58,714 nt of DNA from Candidatus Woesearchaeota archaeon (GTDB taxonomy: Archaea; Nanobdellota; Nanobdellia; Pacearchaeales; GW2011-AR1). How positions within the stretch are numbered: position 1 is the stretch's first letter; every line of letters starts with the position of its first letter. Made by a program: the position numbers and the translations under genes. The stretch is from positions 1-58,714 of the forward strand of contig CAYXTB010000001.1 in NCBI GenBank assembly GCA_964468255.1, in the 5' to 3' direction. The notes under the pieces were generated by a model. It was not told the origin of the DNA. It did not search any database and saw only the letters and a program-made list of their open reading frames with translations. Positions 2,648-41,395 of the stretch are shown piece after piece.

Positions 2648-4837
2648 CTATTGGTTCTCCGCCAGCCCCTTCCTCTGCCTTATCTTCCTTATGACATCAA
2701 ACTGCAGTTCTGCAGGCAGTTTCTGGAAGTGCTGGTCCATCAAAGAAGAAACGCCCCTGCCTTCTGTGGCAGACCTTAAGTCATTGCTCCATCCAATCAT
2801 TTCTGCAACAGGAATTTTAGCTTTTATGAAAGTGTCATTGCCTTCCTGATGAACATCAATTAAAATTCCTCTTTTTGAGCCTATCAATCCATTTACTGTT
2901 CCCATAAAATCAACAGGAACTTCAATCAAATGAGTTTGTATGGGCTCTAATATGACTGCGCCGCCTTTCTTTATAGACTCGTGCATTCCTAATCTTATCG
3001 CAGGATAAATCTGAGCAGGCCCCCTATGCATATGGTCTACGTGTAATTTTGCATCATGAAGAATGAATTTTGTCTTCATCAAAGGCTCTTTTGCTAGGGG
3101 ACCTCCGTCAATGACTAACCTCCATCCGTCAATAATAGATTCAATTACTTCTGGCAATAAGACAAGCCCTCTTGTTCTATCCTGAAAAACATTTCCCTTG
3201 TAGATTTCCAAGTACTGCCTCGCTTCTTCGTTGCTGATGCCAAGAGAAGAAAGCTTCTTCCAAACATCTTCTGCTTTCTTTTTCAGGCGCATCTCAGGCA
3301 ATGCCCCAGATTCAATCGCGTCGTAAACTTCTTCTTCCAAAGGCTCAGCGCTTACAAAGAAAATGTTGTGTCCATTAGGAGTTCTGACTTCAACTTCCGG
3401 GCTTGCTTTGGCAATGCTTTCCCTGTAAACAACAATAGGATTTCCTGTTTTAACTTCAAGCCCCTTTTCTGTCTTGATTCTGCCTTCTATAATCTCCAAG
3501 TGCAATTCACCCATTCCAGAAATAAGATTTTCGCCTGTTTCCTCATTGATTTCAATTTTAATGCTTGGGTCTTCTTTTCCTACTTTTCTCAATACTTCAA
3601 TCAGCTTCGGTAAATCAGCAGACCTGACGATTTCTATGCTCTTTGTAATGACTGGCTGGAAAATGTGCCTTATTTCCTCAAACGGCATCTGTTCGTTCAA
3701 TGTAATAGTATCTCCAACGTCAGAATTCAAGCCAGATATTGCCAGAACATTTCCAGCAGGCACAGATTCCATCTGCTCTGGCTTTATGCCGTTATAAACT
3801 AAAACCTGCTGAACCCTGTATTTTTTCTTGAACATGTTGGAATAAACTTCCATTCCATTCGTAATTGTTCCAGAATAAAGCCTGCCGGCAGAAACTTCTT
3901 TTCCTGACTTTGGCTCTATAACAATTTTTGTAATAATAAAAGCCACTTCTCCTTTGCTATTGCAATTCAATAAATCTTGACCGAATTTGCTGTTCAAATC
4001 GCCTCTCCATATTTTAGGAATTCTATATTTTTGGGCCTGAATAGGATTAGGTAAATGTTTTACAGCCATATCTAAAACAACTTCATGCAAGGGGGCATTT
4101 TTCCAAACCCATTTCTTTCTTTCTTCCTCTGGCATTTCATAAATTCTATAAACATCTTTGAATGAAATATTTTTCTTCTTCATGAAAGGAATTGACAAAG
4201 CCCAGTTCTCCCTTGCTGAGCCGAAAGCAACGCTTCCATCATTAACATTGACTTTCCATTTTTCCTTATACTCTGGTTCAGCAATCTGCATAATTTTATT
4301 ATTAAATTCATTTATTAATTTTATAAAGCGTTCTTGCATTTGCTCTGGCCCAAGCTTCAATTCTTTGATTAATCTATCAACTTTATTAATAAATAAGACT
4401 GGCTTTACTCTCTCTCTTAATGCCTGCTTCAAAACAGTTTCTGTTTGTGGCATAATTCCTTCAACTGCACAAACGAGAACGAAAGTTCCATCAATAGCTC
4501 TCATAGCTCTCGTTACATTTCCCCCAAAATCAACATGCCCTGGAGTATCAATTAAATTAATTAAATATTCTTTTCCCAGATATTCGTGAGCCATAGAAAC
4601 ATTTGCAGCATCAACTGTCATTAATCTTTCCTGCTCATCAGCATGCTGCCATGTGGTCATTCCTTCTTCTAAATCTCCTGCTGCTTTTGTTGACATTAAT
4701 CCTGCGGCAGCCAAAAGTACGTCCGTGAAAGCGGTTTTTCCATGGTGAATATGTGCGCTTGTAGCTACATTCCTGATATTTTCCTGCTGATTTGTCAATC
4801 TTTCAATTTTCCTTATGCTTGTTTCTTTTTCTGTCAT
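2648..4837 (-). CDS. fusA: translation elongation factor 2 (aEF-2)
   Basis: 729 aa. It has the GTPase motifs AHIHHGKT, DTPGH and NKVD, an HRGPAQ diphthamide-loop region, and lies downstream of rps12-rps7 as in archaeal str-type operons. Confidence 0.96.
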   Translation of the reverse strand: MTEKETSIRKIERLTNQQENIRNVATSAHIHHGKTAFTDVLLAAAGLMSTKAAGDLEEGMTTWQHADEQERLMTVDAANVSMAHEYLGKEYLINLIDTPGHVDFGGNVTRAMRAIDGTFVLVCAVEGIMPQTETVLKQALRERVKPVLFINKVDRLIKELKLGPEQMQERFIKLINEFNNKIMQIAEPEYKEKWKVNVNDGSVAFGSARENWALSIPFMKKKNISFKDVYRIYEMPEEERKKWVWKNAPLHEVVLDMAVKHLPNPIQAQKYRIPKIWRGDLNSKFGQDLLNCNSKGEVAFIITKIVIEPKSGKEVSAGRLYSGTITNGMEVYSNMFKKKYRVQQVLVYNGIKPEQMESVPAGNVLAISGLNSDVGDTITLNEQMPFEEIRHIFQPVITKSIEIVRSADLPKLIEVLRKVGKEDPSIKIEINEETGENLISGMGELHLEIIEGRIKTEKGLEVKTGNPIVVYRESIAKASPEVEVRTPNGHNIFFVSAEPLEEEVYDAIESGALPEMRLKKKAEDVWKKLSSLGISNEEARQYLEIYKGNVFQDRTRGLVLLPEVIESIIDGWRLVIDGGPLAKEPLMKTKFILHDAKLHVDHMHRGPAQIYPAIRLGMHESIKKGGAVILEPIQTHLIEVPVDFMGTVNGLIGSKRGILIDVHQEGNDTFIKAKIPVAEMIGWSNDLRSATEGRGVSSLMDQHFQKLPAELQFDVIRKIRQRKGLAENQ

Positions 4838-4875: not shown

Positions 4876-5772
4876 ATGGATGCAGAGAACAAAAGCTCAT
4901 ATAAAAAGAGCTTTTTAAAGATTTGTACGCTTTCAAAAATAATAAGGAATGCCAAGATAATTATACTTGCAATACTTATTAGTATTATGGATAAATTACT
5001 ATGGTTTCAGGATACTTCAGAGTGTAAAGATAAGATAGAAATGGAAAGTATAAACCTCAATGATTTAGAAAAGAGGCTTTCCTCTTCAGGATGTTTTGCT
5101 ATACCAAAGAAAGTTAGAGTAGGCCGTTATGAAATAGAAATTTACTTGGAAGATAAAAGGCCTCAATCGTCTAAAATGTCGCCTGCAGATGCCCTGGAAT
5201 TATCACAAAAATATGGAGATACTGGTTGGTTTCCAAAATCAGAAATAGAAGCTCTTATAGAGGGCAAAGGATTCGTCGTTGTTAGTGCAATGTTTGATCT
5301 CGGATATGTAAAAGACCATTTAGGTAAATTAGCAAAGAAGGAAAAAGGCATGTTCGCTCCTTATAGGCAAAGAATTGCAGAATATGAGTCTAAAATTTTT
5401 AAAATTGCTCAAGTTAATGACGATATTGAAATATTACATGAAAATGAATTTGGAGATGGATGGAATAATACATTTGTCATAACTTCAGGATATAAAGGAA
5501 TGATTTGTGTTGCTACAAAAGTTGCAGAATTATGCTCTCCAGGAATCCAGCCACCTGTAATGCATATATCTCAAAATCAACCTTCTTTTATAATAAAGGC
5601 GAAAAATGTTGTAGCAAGGAGTAATCGCCTAGTGCTAGTTAATTTATTTCACCCTCAAGGCGAGGCAAATCCATTTTATCAATGCCTTTTTCCCTATAAT
5701 ATACCTCTAAAAAAATTCTCTGAACTAGAAAGAAAATTCATAGAGGAAGTTAATCAGAGAATTATTGCTTGA
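4876..5772 (+). CDS. hypothetical protein (start uncertain: ATG at 4876, 4987 or 5041)
   Basis: The long ORF 4792-5772 was trimmed because its first 15 codons overlap the aEF-2 start on the other strand. No recognisable motifs. It ends 1 nt before the displaced rps7 3' remnant. Confidence 0.5.
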   Translation: MDAENKSSYKKSFLKICTLSKIIRNAKIIILAILISIMDKLLWFQDTSECKDKIEMESINLNDLEKRLSSSGCFAIPKKVRVGRYEIEIYLEDKRPQSSKMSPADALELSQKYGDTGWFPKSEIEALIEGKGFVVVSAMFDLGYVKDHLGKLAKKEKGMFAPYRQRIAEYESKIFKIAQVNDDIEILHENEFGDGWNNTFVITSGYKGMICVATKVAELCSPGIQPPVMHISQNQPSFIIKAKNVVARSNRLVLVNLFHPQGEANPFYQCLFPYNIPLKKFSELERKFIEEVNQRIIA

Positions 5773-5814
5773 TTATCTTGCAGCATCAGCCTGCTTTTCA
5801 GACTCATTTTTCTT
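5772..5814 (-). repeat. displaced duplicate of the rps7 3' end (last 13 codons plus stop)
   Basis: 5772-5814 matches 7086-7128 at 39/43 nt, with a perfect 29-nt core (5780-5808 = 7094-7122). Read on the minus strand it encodes KKNESEKQADAAR-stop, identical to the S7 C-terminus. All 4 mismatches are synonymous third-position changes. Confidence 0.85.
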
Positions 5815-6286
5815 TGTCCTTGTCCATTTTTTCTTTTAATCTATTTTTTAAGTTTTTCAATATATCTTTACCAACACTATTCCAAAAATTAGTTATCTCT
5901 CTTGCCTGTGAAACTGAGATTTTAAATCCTCTATAATTAGCACTGTGTCTTATTGATTTAAATCTTTCAAGAGAATTCAGCTTAACTTTTTGCTCGCTCG
6001 AAATAAAGTCTAAATTTAAGTATGTATCTTTTAACATCTCAATTGAAACTTCATGATTTTGTGGATTGTATCCTTCAATCCACCATAATGCATCTCCCAA
6101 TTGCCTAATAGACTCATAAATCTCTCTGAATATTGTAGTTGCCCCCTTTTCATTCAATTCCATTTCCAAAGCAACTTCTCCTGTATTTTTAGCAGATTCT
6201 ATTAATGATAAAGCCCTTTCTTTGTCAGAGCTTACCTTAAGTAATTGTTTTGATTTAATTAATTGGGAGATTCTATCTTCTTTCAT
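5804..6286 (-). CDS. HEPN-domain protein (toxin-like partner of the upstream MNT)
   Basis: 160 aa and helical. It has a C-terminal SIRHSANYRG block resembling the HEPN R-x-x-x-x-Y/H motif. Its start overlaps the stop of the upstream nucleotidyltransferase gene by 4 nt. Confidence 0.7.
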   Translation of the reverse strand: MKEDRISQLIKSKQLLKVSSDKERALSLIESAKNTGEVALEMELNEKGATTIFREIYESIRQLGDALWWIEGYNPQNHEVSIEMLKDTYLNLDFISSEQKVKLNSLERFKSIRHSANYRGFKISVSQAREITNFWNSVGKDILKNLKNRLKEKMDKDKEK

Positions 6287-6867
6287 GGTTTGACCTCTAA
6301 GAAACCCATTAGTACTATCCCATTAGCTATATTATTAAAAACATGCAGATCAGCGTTTTTTCTATTAAACTCGTGAATTTGTATTTTTTTGCCTATCTGT
6401 TTTTCAAATTCTGAAAGCTCTCTAAATCCAATAGTTTTATATTCTTTTATCTCTTCTCGTTCTATTGCTATATCTATATCAGAATTTGATATATCTTCAC
6501 CCTTTCTAAAGCTCCCAAAGAGAATAATTGCCTTGGGGTTGTTATACATTTTATTTAGAAATTCTACTAATCCGCTTTGATAAATAAAGTTAAGATTGTA
6601 TATTATTTTATTTTTTTTATAAATCCATTGTTCTCTGTTAGCCTTTATTCTCCATATTTTAGTAAGCTTTTCAATTTGAATAAATCCAGCAGATTCCAAT
6701 TGTCCAAGAATGCTTCCAACATTTGCTTTAGCTACTCCGGCTTCCTTTGCGATGTCGCTTAAGCTAAATTCTTTTTCAGGAAATCTATATAGTACTTCCA
6801 GAACTTTTTGTACTCCGGTTTCTATATAGAACTTACGATAATCATTAATACTATGTGGTTTCTTCAT
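6283..6867 (-). CDS. winged-helix DNA-binding domain fused to a minimal nucleotidyltransferase (MNT)
   Basis: 194 aa. The N-terminus is wHTH-like (FSLSDIAKEAGVAKANVGSILGQLESAGFIQ). The NTase motif is ILFGSFRKGEDISNSDIDIAI (G-S-x10-D-x-D). Confidence 0.8.
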   Translation of the reverse strand: MKKPHSINDYRKFYIETGVQKVLEVLYRFPEKEFSLSDIAKEAGVAKANVGSILGQLESAGFIQIEKLTKIWRIKANREQWIYKKNKIIYNLNFIYQSGLVEFLNKMYNNPKAIILFGSFRKGEDISNSDIDIAIEREEIKEYKTIGFRELSEFEKQIGKKIQIHEFNRKNADLHVFNNIANGIVLMGFLEVKP

Positions 6868-6906
6868 ATAACATACGTTATATTATAGATATATAAATGT
6901 TTCTAT

Positions 6907-7073
6907 TGTCAAGAACCCTCAGACTAAAGTCTGGGGCGTGTTTGGGTTCTTGAGCACCTCGAGAATTCTGTTTGCTTCTTCAAAAACTTTCAGTTTTTGA
7001 GGCCTCAAAAATCCGCAAAAGATTTTTGAAGTCTCACGGACTAAAGTAGGGAGTTTACGCAAACAGAATTCTC
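6907..7073. repeat. hairpin-rich repeat element, copy A (possible MITE or structured RNA)
   Basis: The terminal hairpin 6907-6957 is TGTCAAGAACCC...GGGTTCTTGAGCAC. A perfect 15-bp inverted repeat (GAGAATTCTGTTTGC 6961-6975 / GCAAACAGAATTCTC 7059-7073) encloses two hairpins. A 33-mer, TTCTTCAAAAACTTTCAGTTTTTGAGGCCTCAA (6976-7008), is identical to 31644-31676. Confidence 0.6.
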
Positions 7074-7086
7074 TCAGTATTAAAAA

Positions 7087-7722
7087 TTACCTCGCAGCAT
7101 CAGCCTGCTTTTCAGACTCATTCTTTTTTATCATACAATAGCTGTCTCCTCCTCCCTTTGCAGCAGCCATTATTTCATTTGCTAAAGTATCTGCCATCTT
7201 GTTTCTTTTGCCAAAGCTTTTAGCATAAGCCCCCTGTACTATCCACCTGATTGCTAAATTAATTCTTCTTATCGGACTCGTGTCTACAGCTTGAGGATAT
7301 CTTGCCCCTGCCTGTTCAATAACAGTTATCTCATCCCTTGGCGAGCCATTCTCAATTGCATTCACTAATATTTGTACGGGATTTTGCCCTGTTTTTTTCT
7401 CTACAATATCTAGGGCTATAAGTATTGTTTTCATATTTCTGTTGTATTTTCCAGAACTCCATGAAGTAATTATTTTATGTTTCTTTCCAACATGTCCTGG
7501 CACAGCCAATCTATTTGCTAATCTTTCTACAATTGAAGCTTTCAAATAAGCAAGCTTTTCCAACTGCCTGCCATAGGACTTCGCCAAAAGTTTTCCCCTT
7601 AGGTTGATATATGGCCTCAGAGCATTATCTTTAACTTTTACTTCTTCAGTTGAATATTTATCAAATAGTTTGAATTCTTTTTCTATTGTTTGTTCTTGCT
7701 TTATTTGTTCAGGCATTGCCAT
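7087..7722 (-). CDS. rps7: 30S ribosomal protein S7 (uS7)
   Basis: 211 aa. The sequence is archaeal uS7-like, and the gene sits immediately (1 nt) downstream of rps12. Confidence 0.93.
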   Translation of the reverse strand: MAMPEQIKQEQTIEKEFKLFDKYSTEEVKVKDNALRPYINLRGKLLAKSYGRQLEKLAYLKASIVERLANRLAVPGHVGKKHKIITSWSSGKYNRNMKTILIALDIVEKKTGQNPVQILVNAIENGSPRDEITVIEQAGARYPQAVDTSPIRRINLAIRWIVQGAYAKSFGKRNKMADTLANEIMAAAKGGGDSYCMIKKNESEKQADAAR

Positions 7723-7723
7723 T

Positions 7724-8146
7724 TTATCTTCTTCCCTTTTCTATCTTGCCCTTCCATAAAAGATGCAAGGGCTGTTCATTTACTTTAATTACTTTAAACC
7801 TGATTCCTGGAATATCTCCGAAAGAGCGCCCCATTCTTCCGCCTATTCTTTCTATAATAACTTCATCGTGTTCATCAATAAATTTCTGCGCTAAATTGCC
7901 TGGTATAAAGGCACCAACTTGAACTCCATTTTTAATTAATTGGACTTTGCAGCATTTTCTCATAGCAGAGTTAGGCTGTCTTGCTTCTTTTTGGAACTTT
8001 GATATTACAATTCCCCTGGCTTGGGAAGCTCCTTTAAGAGGATCTGCCTTTACCTTCAATCTAAGAATTTTTGTCTTGTAAGCTCTCTGGCTCCATCTAA
8101 ACTTTCTCTGCTTTTTCAGTATTCTTCTTGCGCTCATTAATCCCAT
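7724..8146 (-). CDS. rps12: 30S ribosomal protein S12 (uS12)
   Basis: 140 aa with the [13 protein letters not shown] block characteristic of uS12. It occupies the conserved nusA-rps12-rps7 position. Confidence 0.95.
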
Positions 8147-9415: not shown

Positions 9416-12400
9416 CTATTTTGCCTTAGCCTTTTTCTTTTCAAGCTTTGGGTTTACCAAAGGTCCAGTAACTTCAACTAACAGGCCAGGAAGCCCAGTT
9501 CCAACAGGAATTGGTTGGTTTAACAAGATATTTTCAATTACAGAGCTTAACTCATCTCTTGCTCCTTGTATTGTCGCATTAATGAATTGCTTGTCAGGAG
9601 TTTCAAAAGTTGCCCTGGCAAGAACGCTTGCTTTATCAGAAATAATCCCCATTCTTGTTACTCCCTTTACAATTCCAGAAGAAGTCATTGCATCTGCTAC
9701 TAACTTCAAATGCCTCTTATCTATATCAAGGCCTTGAGACTCAATTACTTTCTTGATTTCATTTATTATTATCTGTCTTGCTGCTTCTATTCCAAGAACA
9801 TTTGCAACGTCATGTATATCATTTGACAAAATCCTTTCTCTATCAATGCCTTTCACTTCCATTATATCTTTCAAGTTTGAGCCAGACGTCAAAATTACAT
9901 AATCTTTGCCTCTGCTTGCAATAACTACTTGAGTAACTTTCTTTACTCCGGATATTATTGTTTCCTTCATTTTTTCCTTCAGCTTGTAAATTGCTTTAAA
10001 ATCCAAGTCAACAACGTTAACTGTTATTTTTAAGTCATTTCCTTTTACACTGAATCCTTTTTCCTGTAATCTCTCAACTATTCTTTGCGGCCCAATATGA
10101 ACACTCTTTATCGCCTTATTATCAAGCAAAATTTCAATTTTTTTGTTTGCAAAATCTATCTTTATTTCATTTATTATCTCTTTTAGCTTCATTTCTTTGA
10201 TTTTTTCTGCTATTATTTTGGATTCCTTTTCATTATTGTATTCTTTTTCAAGGTAAATTTCCATTTGGGGTGTTGAAGGCTGTTTTCTTGCATCAAGAAT
10301 CTCAATTAGTCTTGGCAATCCTAAAGTTATTTGTACTTGCGCAACTCCAGCATGATGAAATACATTTAATACCATTTGAGTTGAGGCCTCCCCAAAGCTC
10401 TGGGCAGTAATCACTCCCACGCACTCTCCTGCAGGAATTTTATTGTCTTTTAGATGCAGTTTTGAAATATCTTTTCCATCTTCTCCGTAAATAAATTGCA
10501 CCACATTTTCTGACGCATCTCTTACAGTTCCATCATAAGCAACCTTTAAGTCTTGCAAAGCAGAAACTAATCTTCTATACAAATATCCGGACTTTGGAGT
10601 TCTCAAAGCAGTATCCATTAAGGAATCCCTTCCAGTAATGGCTCCAAAGAAGAACTCGCTTGGCTTCAAACCTTTAAAGTAAGATGACTTTATGAATCCA
10701 TGCGCCTCTGCTCCTATATCATCTTTTTTGAAGAATGAAAGCGTCCGGTCATTATATCCAAAATTAATTCTCTTGTTCCATAAAGATTGTTGCCCTACAC
10801 AGCACGCTATTTGAGTTATATTAAGCATACTTCCAGAAGCTTTTGAATTTATCATTTTGCTTACATTTCCATCTGCCGGGAAATACTGCTGAACAACTTT
10901 TCCTATTTCAGTTATGACTTCATTTAATACCTGCAAGATTTTAATTTCCATTGTTTCCTCAAGAGTTTCTCCAGGAAGGTGATTCATTTTTCCTTCCTCA
11001 TATTCTTTTACTAATTCATACGTCTCCTTCTCGGCCTGCTCTAAAATTTCAGATGTTATTTTCTTTACTTTATCAGATACATTTAAGTCTTGAACTGATA
11101 AAGTGTATCCTTTTCTTGACAAATGAAGGGCCCCAAGAATAAATGCTCTATTTATTGATTCAACTGTTGCCTCTCTCCCAAATTCTTTATCAATTATCTT
11201 TATCATCTCTCCTTCTTCTGCGCCGAATGAATTACTTGCAGTTATTTCATTAGGAATCCTTATGCTCGAGCCTTTTGGAATAATTTGGGCAAAAACTTCT
11301 CTTCCATCAATTTCTTTGCTTTTAATAGAATTAATAACTCCTGATGCATACAAAAGCTGGTCAGCCTCCATTTTGACTATCTTCTCTTTTCCTAAAATAT
11401 AAGCTCCAGTGATAGAATCAGCTATTGTGCCGACAAGATTTATATTATTTTTAGAAGAAATAATATTCTGATTTACATTTAGCAATATTTTCGCTTCTGC
11501 TTTTGCCTCTTCTGTCTGTGGGCTGTGAATATTCATGGCGTCTCCGTCATAATCAGCATTATAAGGGAAGGCAGCTGCAGGATGAAGCCTAAATGTCCTA
11601 TGAGGTAAAACCCTTGTATAATGAGTCATAAGGCTTTGCTTATGCAGGCTCGGATGTCTATTGAAAAGCACAATATCGTCATCTCTTAAATGCCTCTCAA
11701 CTTTATATCCAGGCCGTAACTCATTGCAAAGCTCTTCTTTCAATTCCTCTGTCACCCTTTTTCTCTTCCCATCAGGTCTTATAACATAATTAGCCCCAGG
11801 ATATTTTTCTCCCTGCTTGATAAGAAATTTCATTTCATCTATGTTCAATGAAGTAACAGTCTCGGCAACTGTAATTATCTTTGCAACTTCAAATGGAACT
11901 CCAACTTCATTTATCTTAATAAAAGGGTCAGGAGAAATGACTGTTCTTGCAGAATAATTAACTCTCTTTCCAGCAAGATTATGCCTAATCCTGCCTTCTT
12001 TGCCTTTTATTCTCTCTGTAATTGTTTTTAATGGCTGCCCAGACCTATGTCTTGCAGGAGGAATTCTTGAAATATTATTGTCAAAAAATGTTGTTATATG
12101 GTATTGCAATAAATCCCACAAGTCTTCTATGATTACCTCTGGAGCTCCTGCATTCAAGTTCTCCCATAGTCTTTGATTTGATCTTATAATGTCAGAAAGC
12201 TTATGAGTTAAATCGTCTTCACTTCTCTCTCCAGTATCTAAGGTAATTGAAGGCCTTACGGTTACAGAAGGTACAAGAAGCAGGGATAAGACAGCCCATT
12301 CAGGTCTGCACGTTTTAGGATTAACTCCTATTTTTTTCAATTCGTCATCTGGAATCAAAACAAGCCTGTCCCTTGCGTCAATCGAATTCAATCTTTTTTT

Positions 12401-12859
12401 TCCAAGCATAAATGTGCTGGGCTTCTCAAGTTTTACTCTTTCTATATTTTCAGAGCAATGAGGGCATCTCTTTGCGTCTCTTGCCTTCTTTGCTCTTAAT
12501 ACAGGATTTAATTCTTTCTGCTTTTCATCACTTAAAGTCAGTTTTCCGCATTTTGGGCAGAAACTTCTCAAGCATAATTCAATTAGAGGAATATATTTTA
12601 TGTGCAAAACCGGCCTTGCAAGCTCAATAGAGCCAGAATGTCCAGGGCATTCCTTAACTCTTTTTCCGCAAGTTCTGCATCTAACTCCAGGATCAATTGC
12701 TCCAAGCCTTAAATCCATCAATCCTCCATCAACAGGAAATCCATCAATATCATAAAGTTCAGGAGTTACAATTTTTGCCGTGCTAAGCTTCTTAATTTTC
12801 TCCGGGCTAAGCAGGGAAAATCTTAATGCCTTTACCTGTTTTCTGAAATGAACTTCCAT
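9416..12859 (-). CDS. rpoA: DNA-directed RNA polymerase subunit A, with A' and A'' parts fused in one ORF
   Basis: One uninterrupted 1147-aa ORF. A'-type motifs are the zinc ribbon CRTCGKRVKECPGH, RHPSLH, and the catalytic loop NADYDGDAMN at 11531-11560. A''-type trigger-loop motifs are GEASTQMVLNVFHHAGVA and TLGLPRLIEI. Confidence 0.95.
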   Translation of the reverse strand: MEVHFRKQVKALRFSLLSPEKIKKLSTAKIVTPELYDIDGFPVDGGLMDLRLGAIDPGVRCRTCGKRVKECPGHSGSIELARPVLHIKYIPLIELCLRSFCPKCGKLTLSDEKQKELNPVLRAKKARDAKRCPHCSENIERVKLEKPSTFMLGKKRLNSIDARDRLVLIPDDELKKIGVNPKTCRPEWAVLSLLLVPSVTVRPSITLDTGERSEDDLTHKLSDIIRSNQRLWENLNAGAPEVIIEDLWDLLQYHITTFFDNNISRIPPARHRSGQPLKTITERIKGKEGRIRHNLAGKRVNYSARTVISPDPFIKINEVGVPFEVAKIITVAETVTSLNIDEMKFLIKQGEKYPGANYVIRPDGKRKRVTEELKEELCNELRPGYKVERHLRDDDIVLFNRHPSLHKQSLMTHYTRVLPHRTFRLHPAAAFPYNADYDGDAMNIHSPQTEEAKAEAKILLNVNQNIISSKNNINLVGTIADSITGAYILGKEKIVKMEADQLLYASGVINSIKSKEIDGREVFAQIIPKGSSIRIPNEITASNSFGAEEGEMIKIIDKEFGREATVESINRAFILGALHLSRKGYTLSVQDLNVSDKVKKITSEILEQAEKETYELVKEYEEGKMNHLPGETLEETMEIKILQVLNEVITEIGKVVQQYFPADGNVSKMINSKASGSMLNITQIACCVGQQSLWNKRINFGYNDRTLSFFKKDDIGAEAHGFIKSSYFKGLKPSEFFFGAITGRDSLMDTALRTPKSGYLYRRLVSALQDLKVAYDGTVRDASENVVQFIYGEDGKDISKLHLKDNKIPAGECVGVITAQSFGEASTQMVLNVFHHAGVAQVQITLGLPRLIEILDARKQPSTPQMEIYLEKEYNNEKESKIIAEKIKEMKLKEIINEIKIDFANKKIEILLDNKAIKSVHIGPQRIVERLQEKGFSVKGNDLKITVNVVDLDFKAIYKLKEKMKETIISGVKKVTQVVIASRGKDYVILTSGSNLKDIMEVKGIDRERILSNDIHDVANVLGIEAARQIIINEIKKVIESQGLDIDKRHLKLVADAMTSSGIVKGVTRMGIISDKASVLARATFETPDKQFINATIQGARDELSSVIENILLNQPIPVGTGLPGLLVEVTGPLVNPKLEKKKAKAK

Positions 12860-30222: not shown

Positions 30223-30297
30223 GCTCCCGTAGCTCAGCCCGGATAGAGCATTTGGGTCCTAACCAAAGGGTCGCAGGTTCAAATCCTGCCGGGAGCG
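30223..30297 (+). tRNA. tRNA-Arg (anticodon CCU)
   Basis: Cloverleaf: acceptor GCTCCCG/CGGGAGC, D arm GCTC-AGCCCGGATA-GAGC, anticodon stem TTTGG/CCAAA with loop GTCCTAA, T arm GCAGG-TTCAAAT-CCTGC, and discriminator G. Confidence 0.8.
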
Positions 30298-30362: not shown

Positions 30363-30995
30363 ATGTATATCTTCAATGAAGAACATAAGATAGGCAAGGC
30401 TTTTCTAGAAAAGCCTTGGAAAAAGCTTACTTATTTGGAAGTGCGAAAGCTCTCGGGAAAAAAGTCTAAGAGTTATATTTATCGCGCACTAAACCATCTA
30501 ATGCATAACGAAATTATTATGACTGAACAAGTTGGCAGGTCTCTTTTATACTATCCGACACTGAATTTTTTACAGACGCAGTCTTACTTAGGGTCATTAA
30601 ATGAGCATCTTTCTTGGCAGGCAACCCATATACACAGCAATATCTTAGAAAGACTTGCTGATAAAATTATCAAAATTACGCCCTTTTTTATCTTGATTGT
30701 TGCTGGTAGCTATGCCAATAGAACACAGACAAAAAAATCAGACCTTGATGTCGTTATTATTTGCGACGACAAAATTAACCCGAAAACTATAATGGCTGAA
30801 ATTAAATTGGAGAGTGTTATGAGCATTCCACAAGTGCATCCTTTTGTTTTTACAAAAAAAGAATTTTTAGAGATGCTTACAAATAAAGGAATTAATTATG
30901 GAAAGGAAGTTGTAAATAATAATATGATTTTTTTCGGCGGAGAAAATTACTATAACATAATTAACGAGGCTATACAACATGGATTTAGAGGTTAG
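30363..30995 (+). CDS. winged-helix domain fused to a minimal nucleotidyltransferase (MNT)
   Basis: 210 aa with the NTase motif VAGSYANRTQTKKSDLDVVIICDD. It has the same architecture as 6283-6867. Confidence 0.78.
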   Translation: MYIFNEEHKIGKAFLEKPWKKLTYLEVRKLSGKKSKSYIYRALNHLMHNEIIMTEQVGRSLLYYPTLNFLQTQSYLGSLNEHLSWQATHIHSNILERLADKIIKITPFFILIVAGSYANRTQTKKSDLDVVIICDDKINPKTIMAEIKLESVMSIPQVHPFVFTKKEFLEMLTNKGINYGKEVVNNNMIFFGGENYYNIINEAIQHGFRG

Positions 30996-31455
30996 TCTAT
31001 TATTTGAAAGAGCAGAGAATGAGCTTCTTGCGGCTGAAGTACTTAAAAAGCTGAGTGAAGAAGCTGAAGCAAAGCAAGTCTTGGAAGTGCCTGCTGCAAC
31101 TACTTTTTATAGTTCTGTAATAAACCATGCTTATTACGCAATATTCTATAGCGCTAAGGCTTATCTAACTTTTAAAGGGTTTAAACTTCCAGAGCAAGGC
31201 CAACATCAGGCTGTTTATTATGAATTTAAGCGATTTGTGCAAAAAGGAGATCTTAAAAAAGAGTTGCTTGACTTATACGATGAAGTAAAGACTAAAGCTG
31301 AAACTTTGCTCTCGATTATACAAGAGGAAAGAGGCAAACGCGAAGAATATACATATAAAACTCTTCCTCAAGCAAACAAGGAGCCTGCGGAAAATTCCCT
31401 AAAGAATGCTCGCCTTTTTGTTTCACATATGAGGAGATTCAGCGAGAAAATATAA
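30979..31455 (+). CDS. HEPN-domain protein (partner of the MNT)
   Basis: 158 aa and helical, with an HAYYAIFYSAKAYL block typical of HEPN (PF05168-like). It overlaps the MNT gene by 17 nt. Confidence 0.68.
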   Translation: MDLEVSLLFERAENELLAAEVLKKLSEEAEAKQVLEVPAATTFYSSVINHAYYAIFYSAKAYLTFKGFKLPEQGQHQAVYYEFKRFVQKGDLKKELLDLYDEVKTKAETLLSIIQEERGKREEYTYKTLPQANKEPAENSLKNARLFVSHMRRFSEKI

Positions 31456-31508: not shown

Positions 31509-31611
31509 GCGCGATTAGTTAAATGGCAGAATAGCTGGTTTCCAAAATATAATGACTAATAGGCTATATTGAAACAACCAGCGGACACGGGTTCGATTCC
31601 CGTATCGCGCA
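31509..31611 (+). tRNA. intron-containing tRNA, most likely tRNA-Gly (UCC); Trp (CCA) is a less likely alternative
   Basis: Acceptor GCGCGAT/ATCGCGC, D arm GTTA-AATGGCA-GAAT with A14, G18G19 and A21, and T arm ACGGG-TTCGATT-CCCGT. The anticodon stem GCTGG/CCAGC encloses 39 nt, that is a 7-nt loop TTTCCAA plus a ~32-nt intron at about 37/38. Discriminator A. Confidence 0.75.
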
Positions 31612-31643: not shown

Positions 31644-31778
31644 TTCTTCAAAAACTTTCAGTTTTTGAGGCCTCAAGAACTTCGTTCTTGAAGTTTGGAT
31701 GCAGCAAATTTGAAAAATTTGCTGAACAGAAAATGCAAGGCATTTTCTTGTGCTCAAGGAAATCAAATTCCTTGACAT
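31644..31778. repeat. hairpin-rich repeat element, copy B (five consecutive hairpins)
   Basis: The 33-mer 31644-31676 is identical to 6976-7008. The hairpins are TCAAAAACT/AGTTTTTGA, TCAAGAAC/GTTCTTGA, CAGCAAATTT/AAATTTGCTG, AGAAAATGC/GCATTTTCT and the terminal GTGCTCAAGGAA-ATCAAA-TTCCTTGACAT (31750-31778). Confidence 0.6.
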
Positions 31779-35922: not shown

Positions 35923-36068
35923 TTATCTCCAATTACTCATTACCTATCGTTATTATAATACGTTATACTTAACCATCTATATTTATACATCATAATTATT
36001 TACGATGCGAAAAACAATATGAAAAGGAGAAGCATATTGTTTAAATAGCCTTGATTTTACCTAAAAAA

Positions 36069-37469
36069 ATGCAAAAAACCATTATATTAGGGGCAGGGCC
36101 TGCAGGGCTTGCAGTCGCCTATAAGATTTCAGAAGAAGGCAAAGAATCGTTAATTATTGAAAAGGAAAAGAGAGTTGGCGGGCTTTCTAAGTCATTTAAA
36201 TATAAGGGATTTACTTTTGATATAGGCCCACATTTATTCAAGACAAGAAATAAAGAAATAACTGCGCTCTGGGATGTAATGTCAAAAAAGAAATATGCTG
36301 ATAATAAACATGCGCCTGCAATGCTTTACAATAAAAAAGTATATGAAAGCATGACTGATATTATCTATAGCCTTCCAAAACTTAAATTTCTTGCTGCTGC
36401 TTTAAGCACACTTTCTGCAAAAATATTTGATAAGAAAATTAATTCTGGAGAAGATTGGATATCTGCAACAAGAGGCAGGATTATTTATAAAAAATTTTAC
36501 AAACCGAGAGAAGAAAAATTCTGGGGAACGAGCCTGGATAAAATAGATAAAGAATGGTATGAAAAAAGATTCGGAGAGCATAAATTAAAAGGCTTATTTG
36601 CAGGATTCAAAAACAGGATTCTCGGAAAATCTGGAAATAATAGAGCAATAGACACAACATATCATCCTCAAAAAGGGGCTGGAAGCATGTATGAGGCACT
36701 TGCTTCCATTATAAAGAAAAGAAAAAAAAGCAGGTTTATTTTCAATTCTGTTCCTGAAAAGATAAAACATAAAGGAAAGAAGATAAAATCAATTATTATT
36801 AGAAATTTAAAAACTGGCAGATTAAGAGAGATTAAGGCAGGAGAATTAATATCAAGCATTCCTATAATGGAATTAATTAAAAAGCTTGAGCCAAAAGCTC
36901 CGGAAGAAATACTTGAAATCTGCAAAGAATTAAAATATAGGGATTTAATTCTGGTTAATTTAATTGCTGAATTAAAAGGAGAAATGAAACATAGCTTCTT
37001 TAATGTTTATTCAAATGATATTAAGGCATTTAGAATAACGAATTTTGAGAATCTTTCTGAAAAAATGGGAAACGGGACAAAAATGAAGCCAATATGCATT
37101 GAATATAATTGCCTCAAAAATGATTTCTTATGGAATATGAATAAAAAGAAAATTATAGAAATGGCAAAGGAAGAGCTGGAAAAAATTGGATTTACAAAAA
37201 AAAACAAGATAAAGAATGGCTTTGTAGTTAAAATTGAGAATGCCTACCCAATACACTCAATTGGCTTTCAGGAAAAAACTAGGAAATTAAGGGAATATTT
37301 AATGAGATTTGAGAATTTGCAGAGCATTGGCAGAAATGGAGTATTTACTTATAATCAAATGAGGCATTCAGTTGAATCAGGATTAAGGGCAGGGGAAAAA
37401 GCCCTTGGAATAAGAAAAGATTTTGGAAAAATAGAAACAACTGATGAGGGAAGGGATGTTCTGGATTGA
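36069..37469 (+). CDS. FAD/NAD(P)-dependent oxidoreductase (amine oxidase / UDP-galactopyranose mutase-like fold)
   Basis: It has the Rossmann dinucleotide motif IILGAGPAGLAVAY...IIEKEKRVGG. The start was moved to the ATG at 36069 because the track ORF starts at a TTG at 36051. Confidence 0.75.
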   Translation: MQKTIILGAGPAGLAVAYKISEEGKESLIIEKEKRVGGLSKSFKYKGFTFDIGPHLFKTRNKEITALWDVMSKKKYADNKHAPAMLYNKKVYESMTDIIYSLPKLKFLAAALSTLSAKIFDKKINSGEDWISATRGRIIYKKFYKPREEKFWGTSLDKIDKEWYEKRFGEHKLKGLFAGFKNRILGKSGNNRAIDTTYHPQKGAGSMYEALASIIKKRKKSRFIFNSVPEKIKHKGKKIKSIIIRNLKTGRLREIKAGELISSIPIMELIKKLEPKAPEEILEICKELKYRDLILVNLIAELKGEMKHSFFNVYSNDIKAFRITNFENLSEKMGNGTKMKPICIEYNCLKNDFLWNMNKKKIIEMAKEELEKIGFTKKNKIKNGFVVKIENAYPIHSIGFQEKTRKLREYLMRFENLQSIGRNGVFTYNQMRHSVESGLRAGEKALGIRKDFGKIETTDEGRDVLD

Positions 37470-37508
37470 GTAAAGAGATAAATTTAAAAGTTTAAGATAG
37501 GAAGCAAG

Positions 37509-38639
37509 ATGATGATAAACTGCGGGAAATTTTATAAAGCACTTATAGATAGAAAGATAGAGTTTTTTACAGGAGTTCCTGATTCTTTGTTAAAAGATAT
37601 ATGCGCTTACATAACTGATAATACTCCTAAAGAAAGAAATATTATTGCTGCAAATGAGGGAGGAGCAATTGCCCTTGCTTCTGGATATTATTTAGCAACT
37701 GGAAAAATGCCTTTGGTTTACATGCAGAATTCTGGACAGGGAAATTCCATCAATCCTTTAGCTTCTTTAACAGACAAGGAAGTTTATAGCATTCCAATGC
37801 TGTTAATGATAGGATGGAGGGGAGAGCCGGGAAAGGAAGACGAGCCGCAACATAGAAAACAGGGCAGGATTACTTTAGATTTATTAAAAGTCCTTGAAAT
37901 TCCATATGAAATATTGTCTGATAAGAGCAATGGAATTGAGGATTACATTGACCGGGCGGTTACTCATATGAAAAAGAAAAACAGCTCTTATGCGTTCGTC
38001 GTGAGAAAAGGAACATTTGAGTCGTATGCTTTGAAAAATGACGGGGAGGAAAGGTACAAATTAACAAGAGAAGAAGCAATAAAATTGGCTGCCGAAAAAT
38101 TGGATGGAAGAGAAGTTATAATTTCTACAACCGGCATGATTTCAAGAGAGCTTTTTGAATATAGAAAGGGCAAAAATCAAAATTTGGGTAGAGATTTTTT
38201 AACAGTGGGATCAATGGGGCATGCTTCCCAGATAGCTCTCGGCATTGCGTTATCAAAGCCAAACAGAGAAGTTTATTGTTTTGACGGGGATGGCTCTGTA
38301 ATAATGCATCTTGGCTCTCTTGCTGTTATCGGAGAAAAAAAGCCGAGAAATTTTAAGCATATAGTTTTTAATAATGGAGTGCATGATTCAGTTGGCGGTC
38401 AACCAACTGCCGGCTTCTCAATAAATATCCCTGAAATTGCAAAGGCATGTGGTTACAAAGAAACATGGAGCGCTGAAACAGCCGAAGAAGCTGAGGAAAA
38501 GATAGAATTGCTGAAGAAAGCTGAAGGCCCTTCTCTTCTTGAAATAAAGGTCAGAAAGGGGCATAGAAAAAATCTCAGCAGACCAGACAAGAGCCCAGAG
38601 GAAAATAAAAATAATTTCATGAATTTCCTTGAAGAATAG
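37509..38639 (+). CDS. aepY: phosphonopyruvate decarboxylase
   Basis: 376 aa. It has the N-terminal FFTGVPDSLLKD block and the ThDP motif GDGSVIMHLGSL...VFNNGVHDSVGGQPT, both typical of Ppd. It is flanked by the AEP transaminase gene and lies near the PEP mutase gene. Confidence 0.85.
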   Translation: MMINCGKFYKALIDRKIEFFTGVPDSLLKDICAYITDNTPKERNIIAANEGGAIALASGYYLATGKMPLVYMQNSGQGNSINPLASLTDKEVYSIPMLLMIGWRGEPGKEDEPQHRKQGRITLDLLKVLEIPYEILSDKSNGIEDYIDRAVTHMKKKNSSYAFVVRKGTFESYALKNDGEERYKLTREEAIKLAAEKLDGREVIISTTGMISRELFEYRKGKNQNLGRDFLTVGSMGHASQIALGIALSKPNREVYCFDGDGSVIMHLGSLAVIGEKKPRNFKHIVFNNGVHDSVGGQPTAGFSINIPEIAKACGYKETWSAETAEEAEEKIELLKKAEGPSLLEIKVRKGHRKNLSRPDKSPEENKNNFMNFLEE

Positions 38640-38787
38640 CTAATTCAGCAAATATTATATCTTAATTATCTGCAGTTCTCTAACATTATCTTCATTAAGT
38701 TAATTATTGTTTCTAATTTCAGATATAATTCCTAGTTTGCTCTTAAAGATAGGGCAAGAGAATAAATATATTTATAAAAGGAGCAAA

Positions 38788-39936
38788 ATGCTGAATAAGA
38801 TGGAACCTCTGGAATTAAAAGTTAAGAGAAATATATTGTTAAATCCTGGGCCTGGAACAACGACTTACAGCGTTAAAATGGCTCAATTAGTTCCCGATAT
38901 CTGTCATAGAGAGAAGGAATTCTGCCTTCTTCTTGATGGTATAAGAAAAGACCTTGTTAAAATAGCCTCTAAAAGCCAAGAGGATCATACTGCTGTTCTT
39001 TTTGCAGGTTCTGGGACTGCTGCTGTTGAATCAGTTATAATATCTGCCATACCCGATAATAAAAAACTTCTTGTCATTAATAATGGGGCGTATGGAGACA
39101 GAATTGCAAAAATAGCCAGAACATTTGGAATAAATTTAGAGGAGCAAAAATATTCTTGGAATCAAGGGCCTGATTTGGAGAGAGTAAGGAGAGCTGTAAG
39201 TGAAAGTGGAATTGAATATATCGCGGCAGTCCATCATGAAACAACCTCTGGATTGCTAAATCCTATAAGAAAGCTCGGAGAAATAGCAAAGGCAAATGGA
39301 TGCAAATTTATTGTAGATGCAATGTCCAGCTTTGCAGGGATTGCTTTTAAAATGGAAGAGAATAATATAGATTACTTAATTTCCTCTGCAAACAAATGCT
39401 TACAAGGAATGCCTGGCATTTCATTTGTTATAGCAAAAAAAGATGAAATTGAAAAATTAAAAGATGGAAAAAAGAAATGTTTTTATCTTGATTTGCATGC
39501 GCAATATGAATCCTTGGAAAAACAGCAGCAAATGCGCTTTACTCCTCCTGTTCAAACTGCCTATGCATTGAGAAAGGCAATAGACGAGTTTTTTGAGGAA
39601 GGAGCTGAAAGAAGGCAGGAAAGATATTTCAAAAGCTGGCAGACTCTTACATCTGGATTGCATGAAATAGGATTTAAGCTTTTAATTGAAGATGAAAGGA
39701 TGCAGTCAAGAATATTGACTTCTGTAGTTGAGCCTAAGAATCAAGAGTATGATTTTGATAGACTGCATGATAGATTATATGAAAAAGGATTTACTATTTA
39801 TCCAGGCAAAATTGGAAACATGAATACATTTAGAATAGCAAATATGGGAGCAATAGATTATAGAGATATTGAAAACTTCCTTTCTGCTTTAAAAGATTCT
39901 TTAAAATGTATGGGAATTGAGAAATTAGTTTATTAA
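38788..39936 (+). CDS. phnW: 2-aminoethylphosphonate:pyruvate aminotransferase (class V aminotransferase)
   Basis: It has NPGPGTTT near the N-terminus and the PLP-lysine block SSANKCLQGMPG. The start was set at the ATG at 38788, which is preceded by AAAGGAG. The track ORF begins at a TTG at 38707. Confidence 0.8.
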   Translation: MLNKMEPLELKVKRNILLNPGPGTTTYSVKMAQLVPDICHREKEFCLLLDGIRKDLVKIASKSQEDHTAVLFAGSGTAAVESVIISAIPDNKKLLVINNGAYGDRIAKIARTFGINLEEQKYSWNQGPDLERVRRAVSESGIEYIAAVHHETTSGLLNPIRKLGEIAKANGCKFIVDAMSSFAGIAFKMEENNIDYLISSANKCLQGMPGISFVIAKKDEIEKLKDGKKKCFYLDLHAQYESLEKQQQMRFTPPVQTAYALRKAIDEFFEEGAERRQERYFKSWQTLTSGLHEIGFKLLIEDERMQSRILTSVVEPKNQEYDFDRLHDRLYEKGFTIYPGKIGNMNTFRIANMGAIDYRDIENFLSALKDSLKCMGIEKLVY

Positions 39937-39977
39937 ACTTTCATAATATTTATATATGGAGCTTTGCAGGAAGAAAA

Positions 39978-40838
39978 ATGGAAGCACAAGGAAAAACGCG
40001 GGAAGAAGAACAGAAAGATTTTTTTAGGGAGAATTGCTATTTGCTCGTGAGAGATTTTTTCTCTGAAGAACAAGTCAGGTTATTAAGAAGATATGCTGAT
40101 GAAATGGGCGAGCAATCGCAAAGAGTATTGAATGCTGCCCCACAATCAAGTATGGATATTAATTCTTTTCAAAATGCATTTAAAGGATTAATAGTTGTGC
40201 CAGAAAAAGAAAAGCCTAATCAGGTATGCAGAGTAGAGGATATGCTTTCGTATAGCAGAGGCCTTTATCATTTGGTCTTGGGAAGCGTTACTCCTTTTAT
40301 TTCAGATGTTCTTGGGGAAGAATATGTTCCATTCAAGGATAAGCTTAACTTCAAATGGCCTGGAGGAGGAGCTTTTAAGCCTCATCAAGATTATCCTGCT
40401 TATGACTTGTTTGGGCCGAAAGAGCATGTAACTGCTATGATAAGCATTGATCCATCAACTTTGGAAAATGGCTGCCTTAAAGTTGCCCATAATTACAGGA
40501 AGCCTTTAATAGCAAATGAAAGAATAGAGCAAAAATCTTTATTGCTGGGAAAACCAATAATACCATATAATGGAGATACTATGGAGCAAGAATTTGTTGA
40601 TGTGTTTGATTGGAGGCCTATTGCAACAATGCCAAGGGATTTATTAATATTTGATTCCTATGTTCCTCATGCATCTGAGGCAAATGCCAGCAATTTCCCA
40701 AGAAGAGCAATGTTCATAACGCACAACAGGCTTGCTGAAGGAGAATGGAGAAAAGCATATTACGATTTGAAGAGGAGAGACCCCTTAAATCCTAAGTTTC
40801 ATTTTGCAAATCCAACTACAAAGAGAGAGGAAAAGTAA
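39978..40838 (+). CDS. PhyH-family Fe(II)/2-oxoglutarate dioxygenase
   Basis: 286 aa with an HQD facial-triad start (KPHQDYPAY) and a distal His (YVPHASEAN). It sits inside the phosphonate cluster, where PhnY*-type AEP hydroxylases belong to this family. Confidence 0.7.
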   Translation: MEAQGKTREEEQKDFFRENCYLLVRDFFSEEQVRLLRRYADEMGEQSQRVLNAAPQSSMDINSFQNAFKGLIVVPEKEKPNQVCRVEDMLSYSRGLYHLVLGSVTPFISDVLGEEYVPFKDKLNFKWPGGGAFKPHQDYPAYDLFGPKEHVTAMISIDPSTLENGCLKVAHNYRKPLIANERIEQKSLLLGKPIIPYNGDTMEQEFVDVFDWRPIATMPRDLLIFDSYVPHASEANASNFPRRAMFITHNRLAEGEWRKAYYDLKRRDPLNPKFHFANPTTKREEK

Positions 40839-40865
40839 TAAATAGTGTTTTTTTCTTTGATTTAA

Positions 40866-41393
40866 ATGAAAGGAAAATTAATAGTTTTTGAGGGAGCTGA
40901 CGGCTCTGGAAAAACATCTACAATAGATGCTCTAATGCCTCTGTTGGAAAACCATGGATTTTCTGTTAAGAGAATTTATTTTAGCTCTTTATTGAGAAAA
41001 AGGACTATATTAAGAAGGGCCTTTTCACTTTTTGGAAAGCTGCTCCTGGCTTATTTCAGTTTAATTACCGGAAAATTAATTTTAGCTGATAGGTATATTT
41101 ATTTAACATTCAGGAAAAATGAAATATTGAAAAAAATAGTAAGAACTTTATATCCTAGGGCTGACAAGGTTTTTGTTATGAAGGCAAGCCCTAAAGTATT
41201 AAGAAAAAGGAGGGAGATTTATGAGGGAATTGGGAATAAGCTTTTAAAAAGAAAGGCTGAATTGCAAAGCATTAAAGAGATAAATGAATTGTATAGAATC
41301 TACGAATCTGTACCTAAAGCAATAGTAATCAATATGGAAAAGCCGAGAAAATCAAATTTAAATATTATAATAAATGAAATAAAACAATTATAA
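40866..41393 (+). CDS. thymidylate-kinase-like P-loop kinase (paralogue group 2 of 4)
   Basis: 175 aa with the blocks LIVFEGADGSGKTS, LADRYIYLTFRKN and VFVMKASPKVLRKRR. Confidence 0.7.
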   Translation: MKGKLIVFEGADGSGKTSTIDALMPLLENHGFSVKRIYFSSLLRKRTILRRAFSLFGKLLLAYFSLITGKLILADRYIYLTFRKNEILKKIVRTLYPRADKVFVMKASPKVLRKRREIYEGIGNKLLKRKAELQSIKEINELYRIYESVPKAIVINMEKPRKSNLNIIINEIKQL

Positions 41394-41395
41394 AA

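Follow-up and report, generated by a model that had tools for sequence, protein, structure and literature searches.

The window analysed here (the whole stretch of 58,714 nt, or 58.7 kb, of contig CAYXTB010000001.1, Candidatus Woesearchaeota archaeon) carries a self-contained toxin–antitoxin (TA) cassette, which sits right behind the stop codon of rps7, the gene of ribosomal protein uS7, in a DPANN (Pacearchaeota/Woesearchaeota-like) archaeon. All coordinates are those of the window, and the genes of the cassette, as well as rps7, are encoded on the minus strand. The order of genes and features along this strand is rps12, rps7, a hairpin-rich spacer, a gene for a winged helix-turn-helix protein with a minimal nucleotidyltransferase domain (wHTH-MNT), a gene for a HEPN-like protein, a short filler, an orphaned rps7 end, a convergent open reading frame (ORF) and the gene of elongation factor aEF-2:

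7724-8146, minus strand: rps12, which precedes rps7
7087-7722, minus strand: rps7 (uS7), the intact live gene, an ORF matching Pfam Ribosomal_S7 at E = 6e-33; its last 13 codons and stop (7087-7128) are part of copy A
7086-7132: direct repeat copy A, the live rps7 3' end and 1 nt past the stop
6907-7073: hairpin-rich spacer, which separates the cassette promoter from the rps7 stop and has hairpins at 6911-6953 (43 nt) and 6961-7073 (113 nt)
6868-6906, minus strand: cassette promoter and putative operator, comprising a purine-rich element, the TATA box TTTATATA and the palindrome ATAACGTATGTTAT, which ends at the MNT start codon
6283-6867, minus strand: wHTH-MNT gene, 194 aa (Pfam Polbeta 7.7e-11, NTP_transf_2 3e-9, MarR 4e-5)
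5804-6286, minus strand: gene of the HEPN-like partner, 160 aa, with a 4-nt overlap with the MNT gene
5815-5834: A-rich junction filler, which links copy B to the point (about 5835) where cassette homology stops
5772-5818: direct repeat copy B, the orphaned rps7 3' end (13 codons, the stop and 1 nt), joined to no S7 body
4876-5772, plus strand: convergent ORF of 298 aa, a called gene, whose stop abuts the stop of the orphan
2648-4837, minus strand: aEF-2 (Pfam GTP_EFTU, EFG_III, EFG_IV and EFG_C)

The insert bracketed by the repeat is 1.27 kb long and includes the hairpin-rich spacer, the wHTH-MNT gene and the HEPN-like gene. The two copies of the repeat, 5772-5814 and 7086-7128, are identical at 39 of 43 positions, with a perfect 29-nt core GCAGCATCAGCCTGCTTTTCAGACTCATT and mismatches at repeat positions 5, 8, 38 and 41; under looser matching the repeat reaches 47 nt at 89% identity (5772-5818 and 7086-7132). 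On the minus strand, both copies encode KKNESEKQADAAR followed by a stop codon, and the four differences between them are third-position A/G exchanges, all synonymous (AAA/AAG, AAG/AAA, GCG/GCA and AGG/AGA). The core 27-mer, searched with up to three mismatches, was found at these two sites only in the whole window, the expected number in 100 shuffles being 0.00. Copy A terminates the intact gene: the Pfam S7 profile is aligned to its final position (148/148) in the uS7 product (209/211 aa), and the C-terminus K[KR][NT][ED]xE[KR]QADxAR-stop is present in the S7 proteins of all 21 relatives compared. The sequence upstream of copy B, read in the S7 frame, contains a stop codon and is unrelated to S7. 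The stop of the HEPN-like gene (TGA, 5804-5806) lies inside this orphaned copy in a different frame, and the orphan stop (5773-5775) touches the stop (5770-5772) of the convergent ORF. The event left two copies of the final 13 rps7 codons and stop, of which the live one keeps rps7 whole and the orphan lies 1.3 kb downstream; besides the cassette, the incoming DNA comprised some 180 nt rich in hairpins and some 20 nt of filler.

The relatives identified by S7 are Pacearchaeota, Woesearchaeota or 'Nanoarchaeota' metagenome-assembled genomes (MAGs) with 60-81% identity. The exact S7 protein of the window was found on one contig only, and the nearest other S7 is 81% identical. At the DNA level, the rps7 end differs in the relatives by 1-6 mismatches in 29 nt and can be described by the degenerate pattern AARAAYGARNNNGARAARCARGCNGAYNNNGCNMGNTRR. 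Sequences similar to the 29-mer (up to six mismatches) occur in 16 of 30 other distinct loci, one in each and solely at genuine rps7 ends, so it is not a common repeat; the objection foreseen in the original prediction, that the match might be a low-complexity repeat of many unrelated loci, does not apply. The 29-mer repeat is neither a chance match nor a low-complexity one. The rps7 end of the nearest relative, L025, shows 2 differences in 42 nt from the orphan and 4 in 42 from the live copy, L025 being too distant to polarise the changes between the two. The orphan adjoins the convergent ORF without a spacer, which suggests that the orphan is the resident rps7 end, and the convergent ORF is probably the original neighbour of that end, since the two stops abut. 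This ORF belongs to no Pfam family and has no homologue in the loci of the 21 relatives. Homology to the ORFs located downstream of rps7 in L012 and L016 was considered and rejected, as BLAST revealed no similarity.

EF-2 follows rps7 at a distance of 46-119 nt in four relatives (L010, L015, L020 and L026, 119 nt in the last), which indicates that extra DNA has been added in the window, where the two genes are 2.25 kb apart and separated by the convergent ORF and the MNT/HEPN insert. Other relatives have from 0.9 to more than 6 kb of unrelated ORFs at this place, and unrelated ORFs also follow rps7 in L025 and L027. A second rps7 end, or an rps7 end occupied by an insert, was found in none of the 21 relatives. 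As regards the original prediction, the repeat with its perfect core, the common peptide with four synonymous mismatches, the live state of 7086-7128 and the orphaned state of 5772-5814 were all re-found, and the short gap in the four relatives agrees with the proposal of an insertion bracketed by a duplicated rps7 end that leaves rps7 intact. As for the separation of rps7 from EF-2 by the insertion, the prediction is right in that the insert lies between the two genes and incomplete in that the unrelated 298-aa ORF lies there too.

The rps7–EF-2 spacer (loci L005-L027) appears in the 21 relatives as a hotspot of variation, from 46 nt to more than 6 kb in length, with mutually unrelated ORFs. 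A gene about 4.3 kb downstream of rps7 in L016 is tyrosine-recombinase-like, as judged by eye only. The EF-2 of a related Woesearchaeota MAG (L009, 2054-4819; 921 aa) contains a mini-intein in the P-loop (GK|CISG...VIHN|TAF), and what appeared in tblastn as a duplication of the 5' end of this gene is really the intein.

The wHTH-MNT protein starts with a MarR/TrmB-like winged helix and ends in a minimal nucleotidyltransferase domain, the motif of which, GSFRxGED...SDxD, is invariant in 24 homologues. By analogy with known systems, it is a predicted antitoxin and autoregulator. The search returned 1072 homologues at E ≤ 1e-5, and the best 120 of these 1072 are 64-78% identical and mostly 193-194 aa long, a level of conservation about equal to that of S7. 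The HEPN-like protein of the window has no Pfam match, and a distant paralogue matches PF05168 at E = 6.5e-4. The top Foldseek matches to its single-sequence AlphaFold2 model (pLDDT 73.5) are HEPN toxins or HEPN-MNT complexes (8yuf, 2hsb, 8xdj and 8xeh), all of them weak, with a probability of 0.87-0.98 but E values of at least 0.15 and template modelling (TM) scores of 0.45-0.59. A profile of the HEPN alignment gave nothing significant against PDB sequences. The Pfam, paralogue and Foldseek results are in line with the predicted pairing of a wHTH-MNT gene with a HEPN-like one.

Like the type VII system HepT/MntA, the cassette combines a minimal nucleotidyltransferase with the GS...DxD motif and a partner of putative HEPN fold; unlike it, the MNT protein has an N-terminal winged helix, and the HEPN partner has R-x3-N-Y in place of the canonical Rx4-6H. 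The Rx4-6H RNase motif left no trace in this HEPN-like family, with no His at the expected spacing, and the conserved motif is I-R-x-x-x-N-Y-[RK]-G (R113, N117 and Y118). The pair is presumably an MNT antitoxin with a HEPN toxin, a type VII-like module, and, again by analogy, the winged helix would repress the cassette promoter by way of the palindrome. Given the non-canonical HEPN motif and the unusual conservation, another, housekeeping-linked role is also conceivable. A DPANN-specific MNT-HEPN cluster, cls.004259 (NEQ050), has been described by Makarova et al. as unusually conserved and 'typically in house-keeping context' (PMC6393860). The cassette shares both features with this cluster, the likeness concerning the properties described there; the cluster is described as a fusion, whereas the pair in the window consists of two overlapping genes, and flanking target duplications are not mentioned in the available part of the description (PMC6393860).

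The same HEPN-like gene follows the MNT gene in seven other contexts (L028-L036 and L040), with 48-71% identity, and the 4-nt overlap of the two genes is present in all contexts. DNA homology to these seven contexts is confined to window positions 5835-6903, that is, from about 36 nt upstream of the MNT ATG, including the purine-rich element, the TATA box and the palindrome, to about codon 150 of the HEPN-like gene. The promoter with the putative operator is kept in 8 of the 8 cassette contexts compared, and the palindrome ATAACATATGTTAT, a candidate binding site of wHTH-MNT, is present solely at the 5' end of the cassettes. At the other end, blastn homology to L028 stops at window position 5835. 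The other HEPN partners finish at 140-149 aa, 11-20 codons earlier than that of the window, the terminal 10-15 codons of which (roughly from ...NRLK) are non-native: they run through the junction into the orphaned rps7 end, the source of the TGA stop. The filler, about 20 nt long and A-rich, shows possible microhomology or slippage (AAAGAAAAA). A scan of metagenome contigs with the MNT protein gave four loci, and the homologous cassettes occupy mutually unrelated sites.

The ends of some other cassettes are altered as well. The HEPN gene of L028 lacks a stop codon of its own and continues in frame into a C39 peptidase domain, so that the product has 350 aa. L048 and L040 are identical through the left flank, the MNT gene and the HEPN gene to about codon 118, and then have different HEPN 3' ends and right flanks; this switch, judged from the sequences, indicates recombination within the cassette or a chimeric assembly. 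The cassette of L028 (8582-9634) is the closest one on a long contig, its MNT protein being 78% identical, and L029, a strain variant of L028, has a different reading frame at the HEPN fusion. Five tandem 32-nt units are located just upstream of the MNT-HEPN cassette in L032 (992-1183).

The hairpin-rich spacer lies outside the conserved cassette, the DNA homology to other cassettes ending at 6903. A T5 run follows rps7 ahead of the hairpins, and the closing stem of the 113-nt hairpin is a perfect 15 bp (6961-6975 with 7059-7073). The folding z-scores of the spacer are -7.6 and -8.2 on the two strands. An RNA gene was considered here and rejected, since neither a tRNA nor any Rfam family was found, even at E up to 10; the structure is strong on both strands, but the spacer does not share the conservation of the cassette. 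A 36-nt segment of the larger hairpin (6976-7011) is repeated at 31644-31679 with 35 of 36 nt identical, about 190 nt downstream of a second MNT/HEPN pair and just 3' of a tRNA. Its 17-nt core AAAAACTTTCAGTTTTT was also found beside tRNA-Arg(CCT) in an unrelated DPANN contig (L033, 246-262). The recurring segment may act as a terminator or processing hairpin common to these places, or may itself be a small palindrome that is mobile.

Flanking duplications were also detected at cassettes elsewhere. In L035, the cassette (5961-7016) is located between two copies of about 183 nt with 87% identity and one in-frame 3-nt indel, which correspond to the terminal 60 or so codons and the stop of a 396-aa gene; the homology stops at the stop codon. 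The live end is at 7018-7200 and the orphan at 5775-5960. The cassette of L035 is convergent with the duplicated gene, an orientation opposite to that of the window cassette. The differences between the L035 copies are scattered over the 183 nt, fall on the three codon positions as 6/5/13, affect 6 codons synonymously and 11 non-synonymously, and are AT-biased. In L036-L039 and L050-L054 (ENA, JGI and NCBI assemblies), a perfect 35-nt repeat surrounds 1742 nt, of which about 620 nt are additional to the cassette; the repeat begins at the TATA box of a NusA-like gene and extends to ATG+1. A related species (L055/L056) has a single 35-nt segment (29 of 35 nt identical) and no cassette; a strain-level empty site for the L036 cassette was not found, all 24 contigs examined carrying it. 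In L040-L047, a perfect 21-nt repeat (30 nt at 90%) surrounds the cassette alone. The inserts of L035 and L040 extend almost exactly from promoter to stop.

When the two flanks of each cassette were compared with one another, 4 of 12 cassettes scored 21-103, with a shuffled maximum of at most 16, and the 503 cassette-sized control segments, taken from 22 sequences, contained only two independent sites that reached 19. No flanking repeat was found at either pair of L028, at L032, L033, L034 and L048, at the second pair of L035, at L021b (the same pair as one of those in L028) or at the second pair of the window (30363-31455). The duplications keep the neighbouring gene end or core promoter intact, with the cassette in either orientation. 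The scar is recurrent, at four independent and unrelated sites and with no recombinase gene in the insert. A keyword search of the literature, within the text it reached, revealed no description of such recurrent flanking duplications.

A Pfam scan of about 50 ORFs of the window, which took in every non-overlapping ORF of 110 aa or more except three, detected neither a tyrosine nor a serine recombinase, and the insert itself contains no integrase, as had been predicted. The sole recombinase-like gene among the scanned ORFs is an rve transposase of an insertion sequence (IS) at 57-1019, with an ORF at 140-991 (HTH_28, rve and rve_3; DDE transposase) and 26-nt imperfect terminal inverted repeats (57-82 and 994-1019). 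Mobilisation of the cassette by this IS was rejected: the terminal-repeat motif was found at its own ends only and not at the insert. The cassettes have no terminal inverted repeats, the putative operator palindrome being at the 5' end alone. A DDE or HUH transposon was likewise rejected, there being no transposase in the insert, a palindrome at the 5' end only, hairpins on one side and repeats of 21 to about 183 nt. An integron gene cassette does not fit, as the hairpins precede the promoter, the other copies have no such spacer, and no IntI was found among the scanned ORFs. A virus or plasmid carrying attP was also considered and discarded; the 27-mer, the MNT protein and its profile had no match in IMG/VR viral contigs.

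The account tentatively preferred here is a displacement insertion driven by homology and carried out by host recombination, with no dedicated site-specific integrase. Donor DNA from a related genome, in which an rps7 3' end was followed by the cassette, would have paired with the resident rps7 by means of this conserved gene. One-ended homologous recombination (homology-facilitated illegitimate recombination), or a Campbell-type crossover of a circularised fragment, which would give the same product, would then have joined the non-homologous far end 43-47 nt upstream of the resident stop, and the resident rps7 end would have been pushed downstream to become the orphan. A circle junction of the insert, hypothetically, consists of the HEPN tail, the core and the start of the spacer (TTTTTAATACTGAG...). 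Only events sparing the tightly packed flanking genes would have survived, which would explain why duplications are seen and not deletions. Of the two junctions, one is located in homologous DNA bounded at the stop codon and the other has A-rich filler with possible microhomology. The lack of an integrase among the scanned ORFs of the window, the unrelated targets, both orientations, the absence of the rps7-like sequence from other cassettes and the ragged insert ends (the HEPN stop lost in the window and L028, about 620 nt extra in L036, a recombinant HEPN in L048) point to a homology-driven rather than a site-specific process. The repeat ends at the stop codon in L035, one base past the stop in the window and at the TATA-box edge in L036; two alleles with different neighbours would lose similarity at such edges, so these boundaries fit the meeting of two alleles. 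Differences that are synonymous at 4 of 4 sites have P ~0.01-0.05 under in-situ duplication with a neutral orphan; the pattern is thus mildly unlikely for a decaying fresh duplicate and fits two rps7 ends that were both once functional.

A number of points weigh against displacement. A strain-level empty site for the window was absent from the data collections, where the closest S7 is 81% identical, and none of the 21 relatives has the donor layout of rps7, spacer, MNT and HEPN without an orphan. No mosaic signal was detected in rps7, the same relative being nearest or near-tied along most of the gene, with relatives too distant for the comparison to have power. The synonymous-only signal comprises four sites only, in a finding picked for its striking look. 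If the 43 nt with 91% identity were the sole homology, homologous recombination over them would be inefficient. A target-site duplication would account equally well for the perfect repeats of 35 and 21 nt and for the L035 orphan, which looks neutral and drifts towards AT, and the promoter-to-stop inserts of L035 and L040 suggest an element with defined ends, not a random fragment.

Such a target-site duplication at a staggered break is possible, though somewhat unlikely. Cassette DNA would have been ligated into nicks 43-47 nt apart, and fill-in would have copied the resident rps7 end; the copies would have been identical at first and would have drifted later, the live copy changing solely at synonymous sites. 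The enzyme could be an unrecognised transposase-like activity or a repair pathway. Besides the perfect repeats of L036-L039 and L040, the near-neutral, AT-biased decay of the L035 orphan and the inserts that amount almost exactly to the cassette, this explanation draws on the single 35-nt segment of L055/L056 and on the precedent of long variable target duplications: IS1549/IS1634 produce direct repeats of 8-514 bp (PMC2266710). These elements resemble the cassette in the long flanking target duplications of variable length but possess a DDE transposase gene and terminal inverted repeats, both of which the cassette lacks. The ragged ends in the window, L028 and L036 also speak against a staggered break, as do the repeat boundaries at a stop codon or TATA edge in three of four cases, unlike random nicks, and the low P value of the synonymous pattern. 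Integration at an att-type site, as put forward in the original prediction, seems distinctly unlikely. A site-specific (tyrosine) integrase, encoded elsewhere or lost, would have acted on an attP mimicking the rps7 3' end, with the 29-nt core as the crossover region, copy A supplied by the element and copy B as the original host end. The repeats do resemble attL and attR, the target gene rps7 being reconstituted through its stop; archaeal att sites typically look like this repeat of 43-47 nt around a perfect 29-nt core, no difference changes an amino acid, the homology ends one base past the stop, and the DNA of the rps7 end is well conserved in the relatives. Integration into the 3'-distal parts of protein genes with reconstitution of the frame is documented, 14 of 68 thaumarchaeal elements being integrated in this way and crenarchaeal att sites measuring 29-69 bp (PMC6563490). 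This view is opposed by the lack of an integrase in the insert and the scanned ORFs, the empty rps7 ends of all 21 relatives, the blank result with viral contigs, and the other cassettes, some of which have local duplications of their own: no rps7-like 29-mer is found beside any of them, their targets, repeat lengths (21 to about 183 nt) and orientations differ, and the scattered L035 mismatches lack a core-and-arms pattern.

An artefact (an assembly chimera at the 29-nt repeat, a chance match or the remainder of a local tandem duplication) is very improbable. The window is a single MEGAHIT-style contig (ENA ERZ27284378 k139_260516), no second assembly spans the junctions, and L002 covers only the MNT gene and part of the HEPN gene, all of which would suit an artefact. 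A chimera at a shared 29-mer would, however, give one junction and not two copies around an insert, the number of chance matches expected is nil, as given above, and a tandem duplication would not put a foreign cassette between the copies. In addition, the same architecture is present at three other loci in independent ENA, JGI and NCBI assemblies.

Displacement has its closest parallel in the arrays of effector and immunity genes of Rhs, contact-dependent inhibition (CDI) and type VI secretion system (T6SS) loci, and for T6SS and Rhs loci a displacement leaving orphaned 3' regions has been proposed (PMC5361080). Common to both are a conserved anchor gene, an incoming module with its own copy of the 3' end and a resident end displaced as an orphan. 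The anchor here is a ribosomal protein gene (elsewhere a promoter or intergenic region), not a polymorphic toxin gene, the host is an archaeon and the orphan is tiny (13 codons); in both cases the mechanism is inferred. The integrated mobile genetic elements of archaea with tyrosine integrases of SSV/pNOB8 type (PMC6563490) are similar in the flanking direct repeats of about 45 nt, the reconstituted 3' end with stop and the displaced partial copy at the far end. In contrast to them, the cassette has no integrase, the insert of 1.27 kb is about one TA operon, the targets of homologous cassettes are unrelated and were entered in either orientation, and no other copy carries the rps7-like 'att'.

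A further reading, bolder and rather unlikely, is that the wHTH-MNT/HEPN pair is a discrete promoter-to-stop mobile unit without an integrase, a new class of minimal selfish cassette of streamlined archaeal genomes. Such a unit would nest at housekeeping gene ends and core promoters by way of long duplications of variable length (21 to about 183 nt), sparing essential neighbours, and its insertion would be helped by host replication or repair or by the DNA-binding nucleotidyltransferase of the cassette itself. The duplicated gene ends could then serve as portable homology for excision and re-integration into relatives.

DPANN archaea have tiny, tightly packed genomes with few recognised mobile elements. 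The movement of TA modules between chromosomal sites is largely unexplained, and the label 'mobile' comes mainly from their patchy distribution. The conserved DPANN cassette described here carries a physical insertion scar, the duplicated end or core promoter of a neighbouring gene. If upheld in a larger survey, the scar would be a testable footprint of cassette-level gene flow in DPANN archaea, would show how insertions beside essential genes such as rps7 are tolerated, and would help to explain the housekeeping contexts of the family (PMC6393860). It also follows that an att-like duplicate of a gene 3' end is insufficient evidence for an element of integrase type.

The second pair of the window (30363-31455), distantly related to the first, encodes a wHTH-MNT protein of 210 aa and a HEPN protein of 158 aa (PF05168, E = 6e-5). 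It has its own palindromic putative operator TATAGTCCTATTAATAGGACTATA and is located between tRNA-Arg(CCT) (30223-30297) and another tRNA. A 103-nt tRNA at 31509-31611 was recognised by Rfam (53 bits) and missed by ARAGORN. It probably contains an intron, and its anticodon loop, by eye, looks like CCA (Trp).

The large subunit of archaeal RNA polymerase is usually split into A' and A''. In the window, one ORF of 1147 aa (9416-12859) contains Rpb1 domains 1-5, so the large subunit appears to be unsplit, with no A'/A'' division.

A phosphonate-type biosynthesis cluster occupies 36051-47039 and includes the following genes:

37509-38639: TPP-dependent (thiamine pyrophosphate) decarboxylase-like gene
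38707-39936: aminotransferase gene
43761-45479: gene of a PEP (phosphoenolpyruvate) mutase–nucleotidyltransferase fusion

The cluster also encodes a PhyH dioxygenase and a CDP-alcohol phosphatidyltransferase, which are followed by glycosyltransferase and methyltransferase genes.

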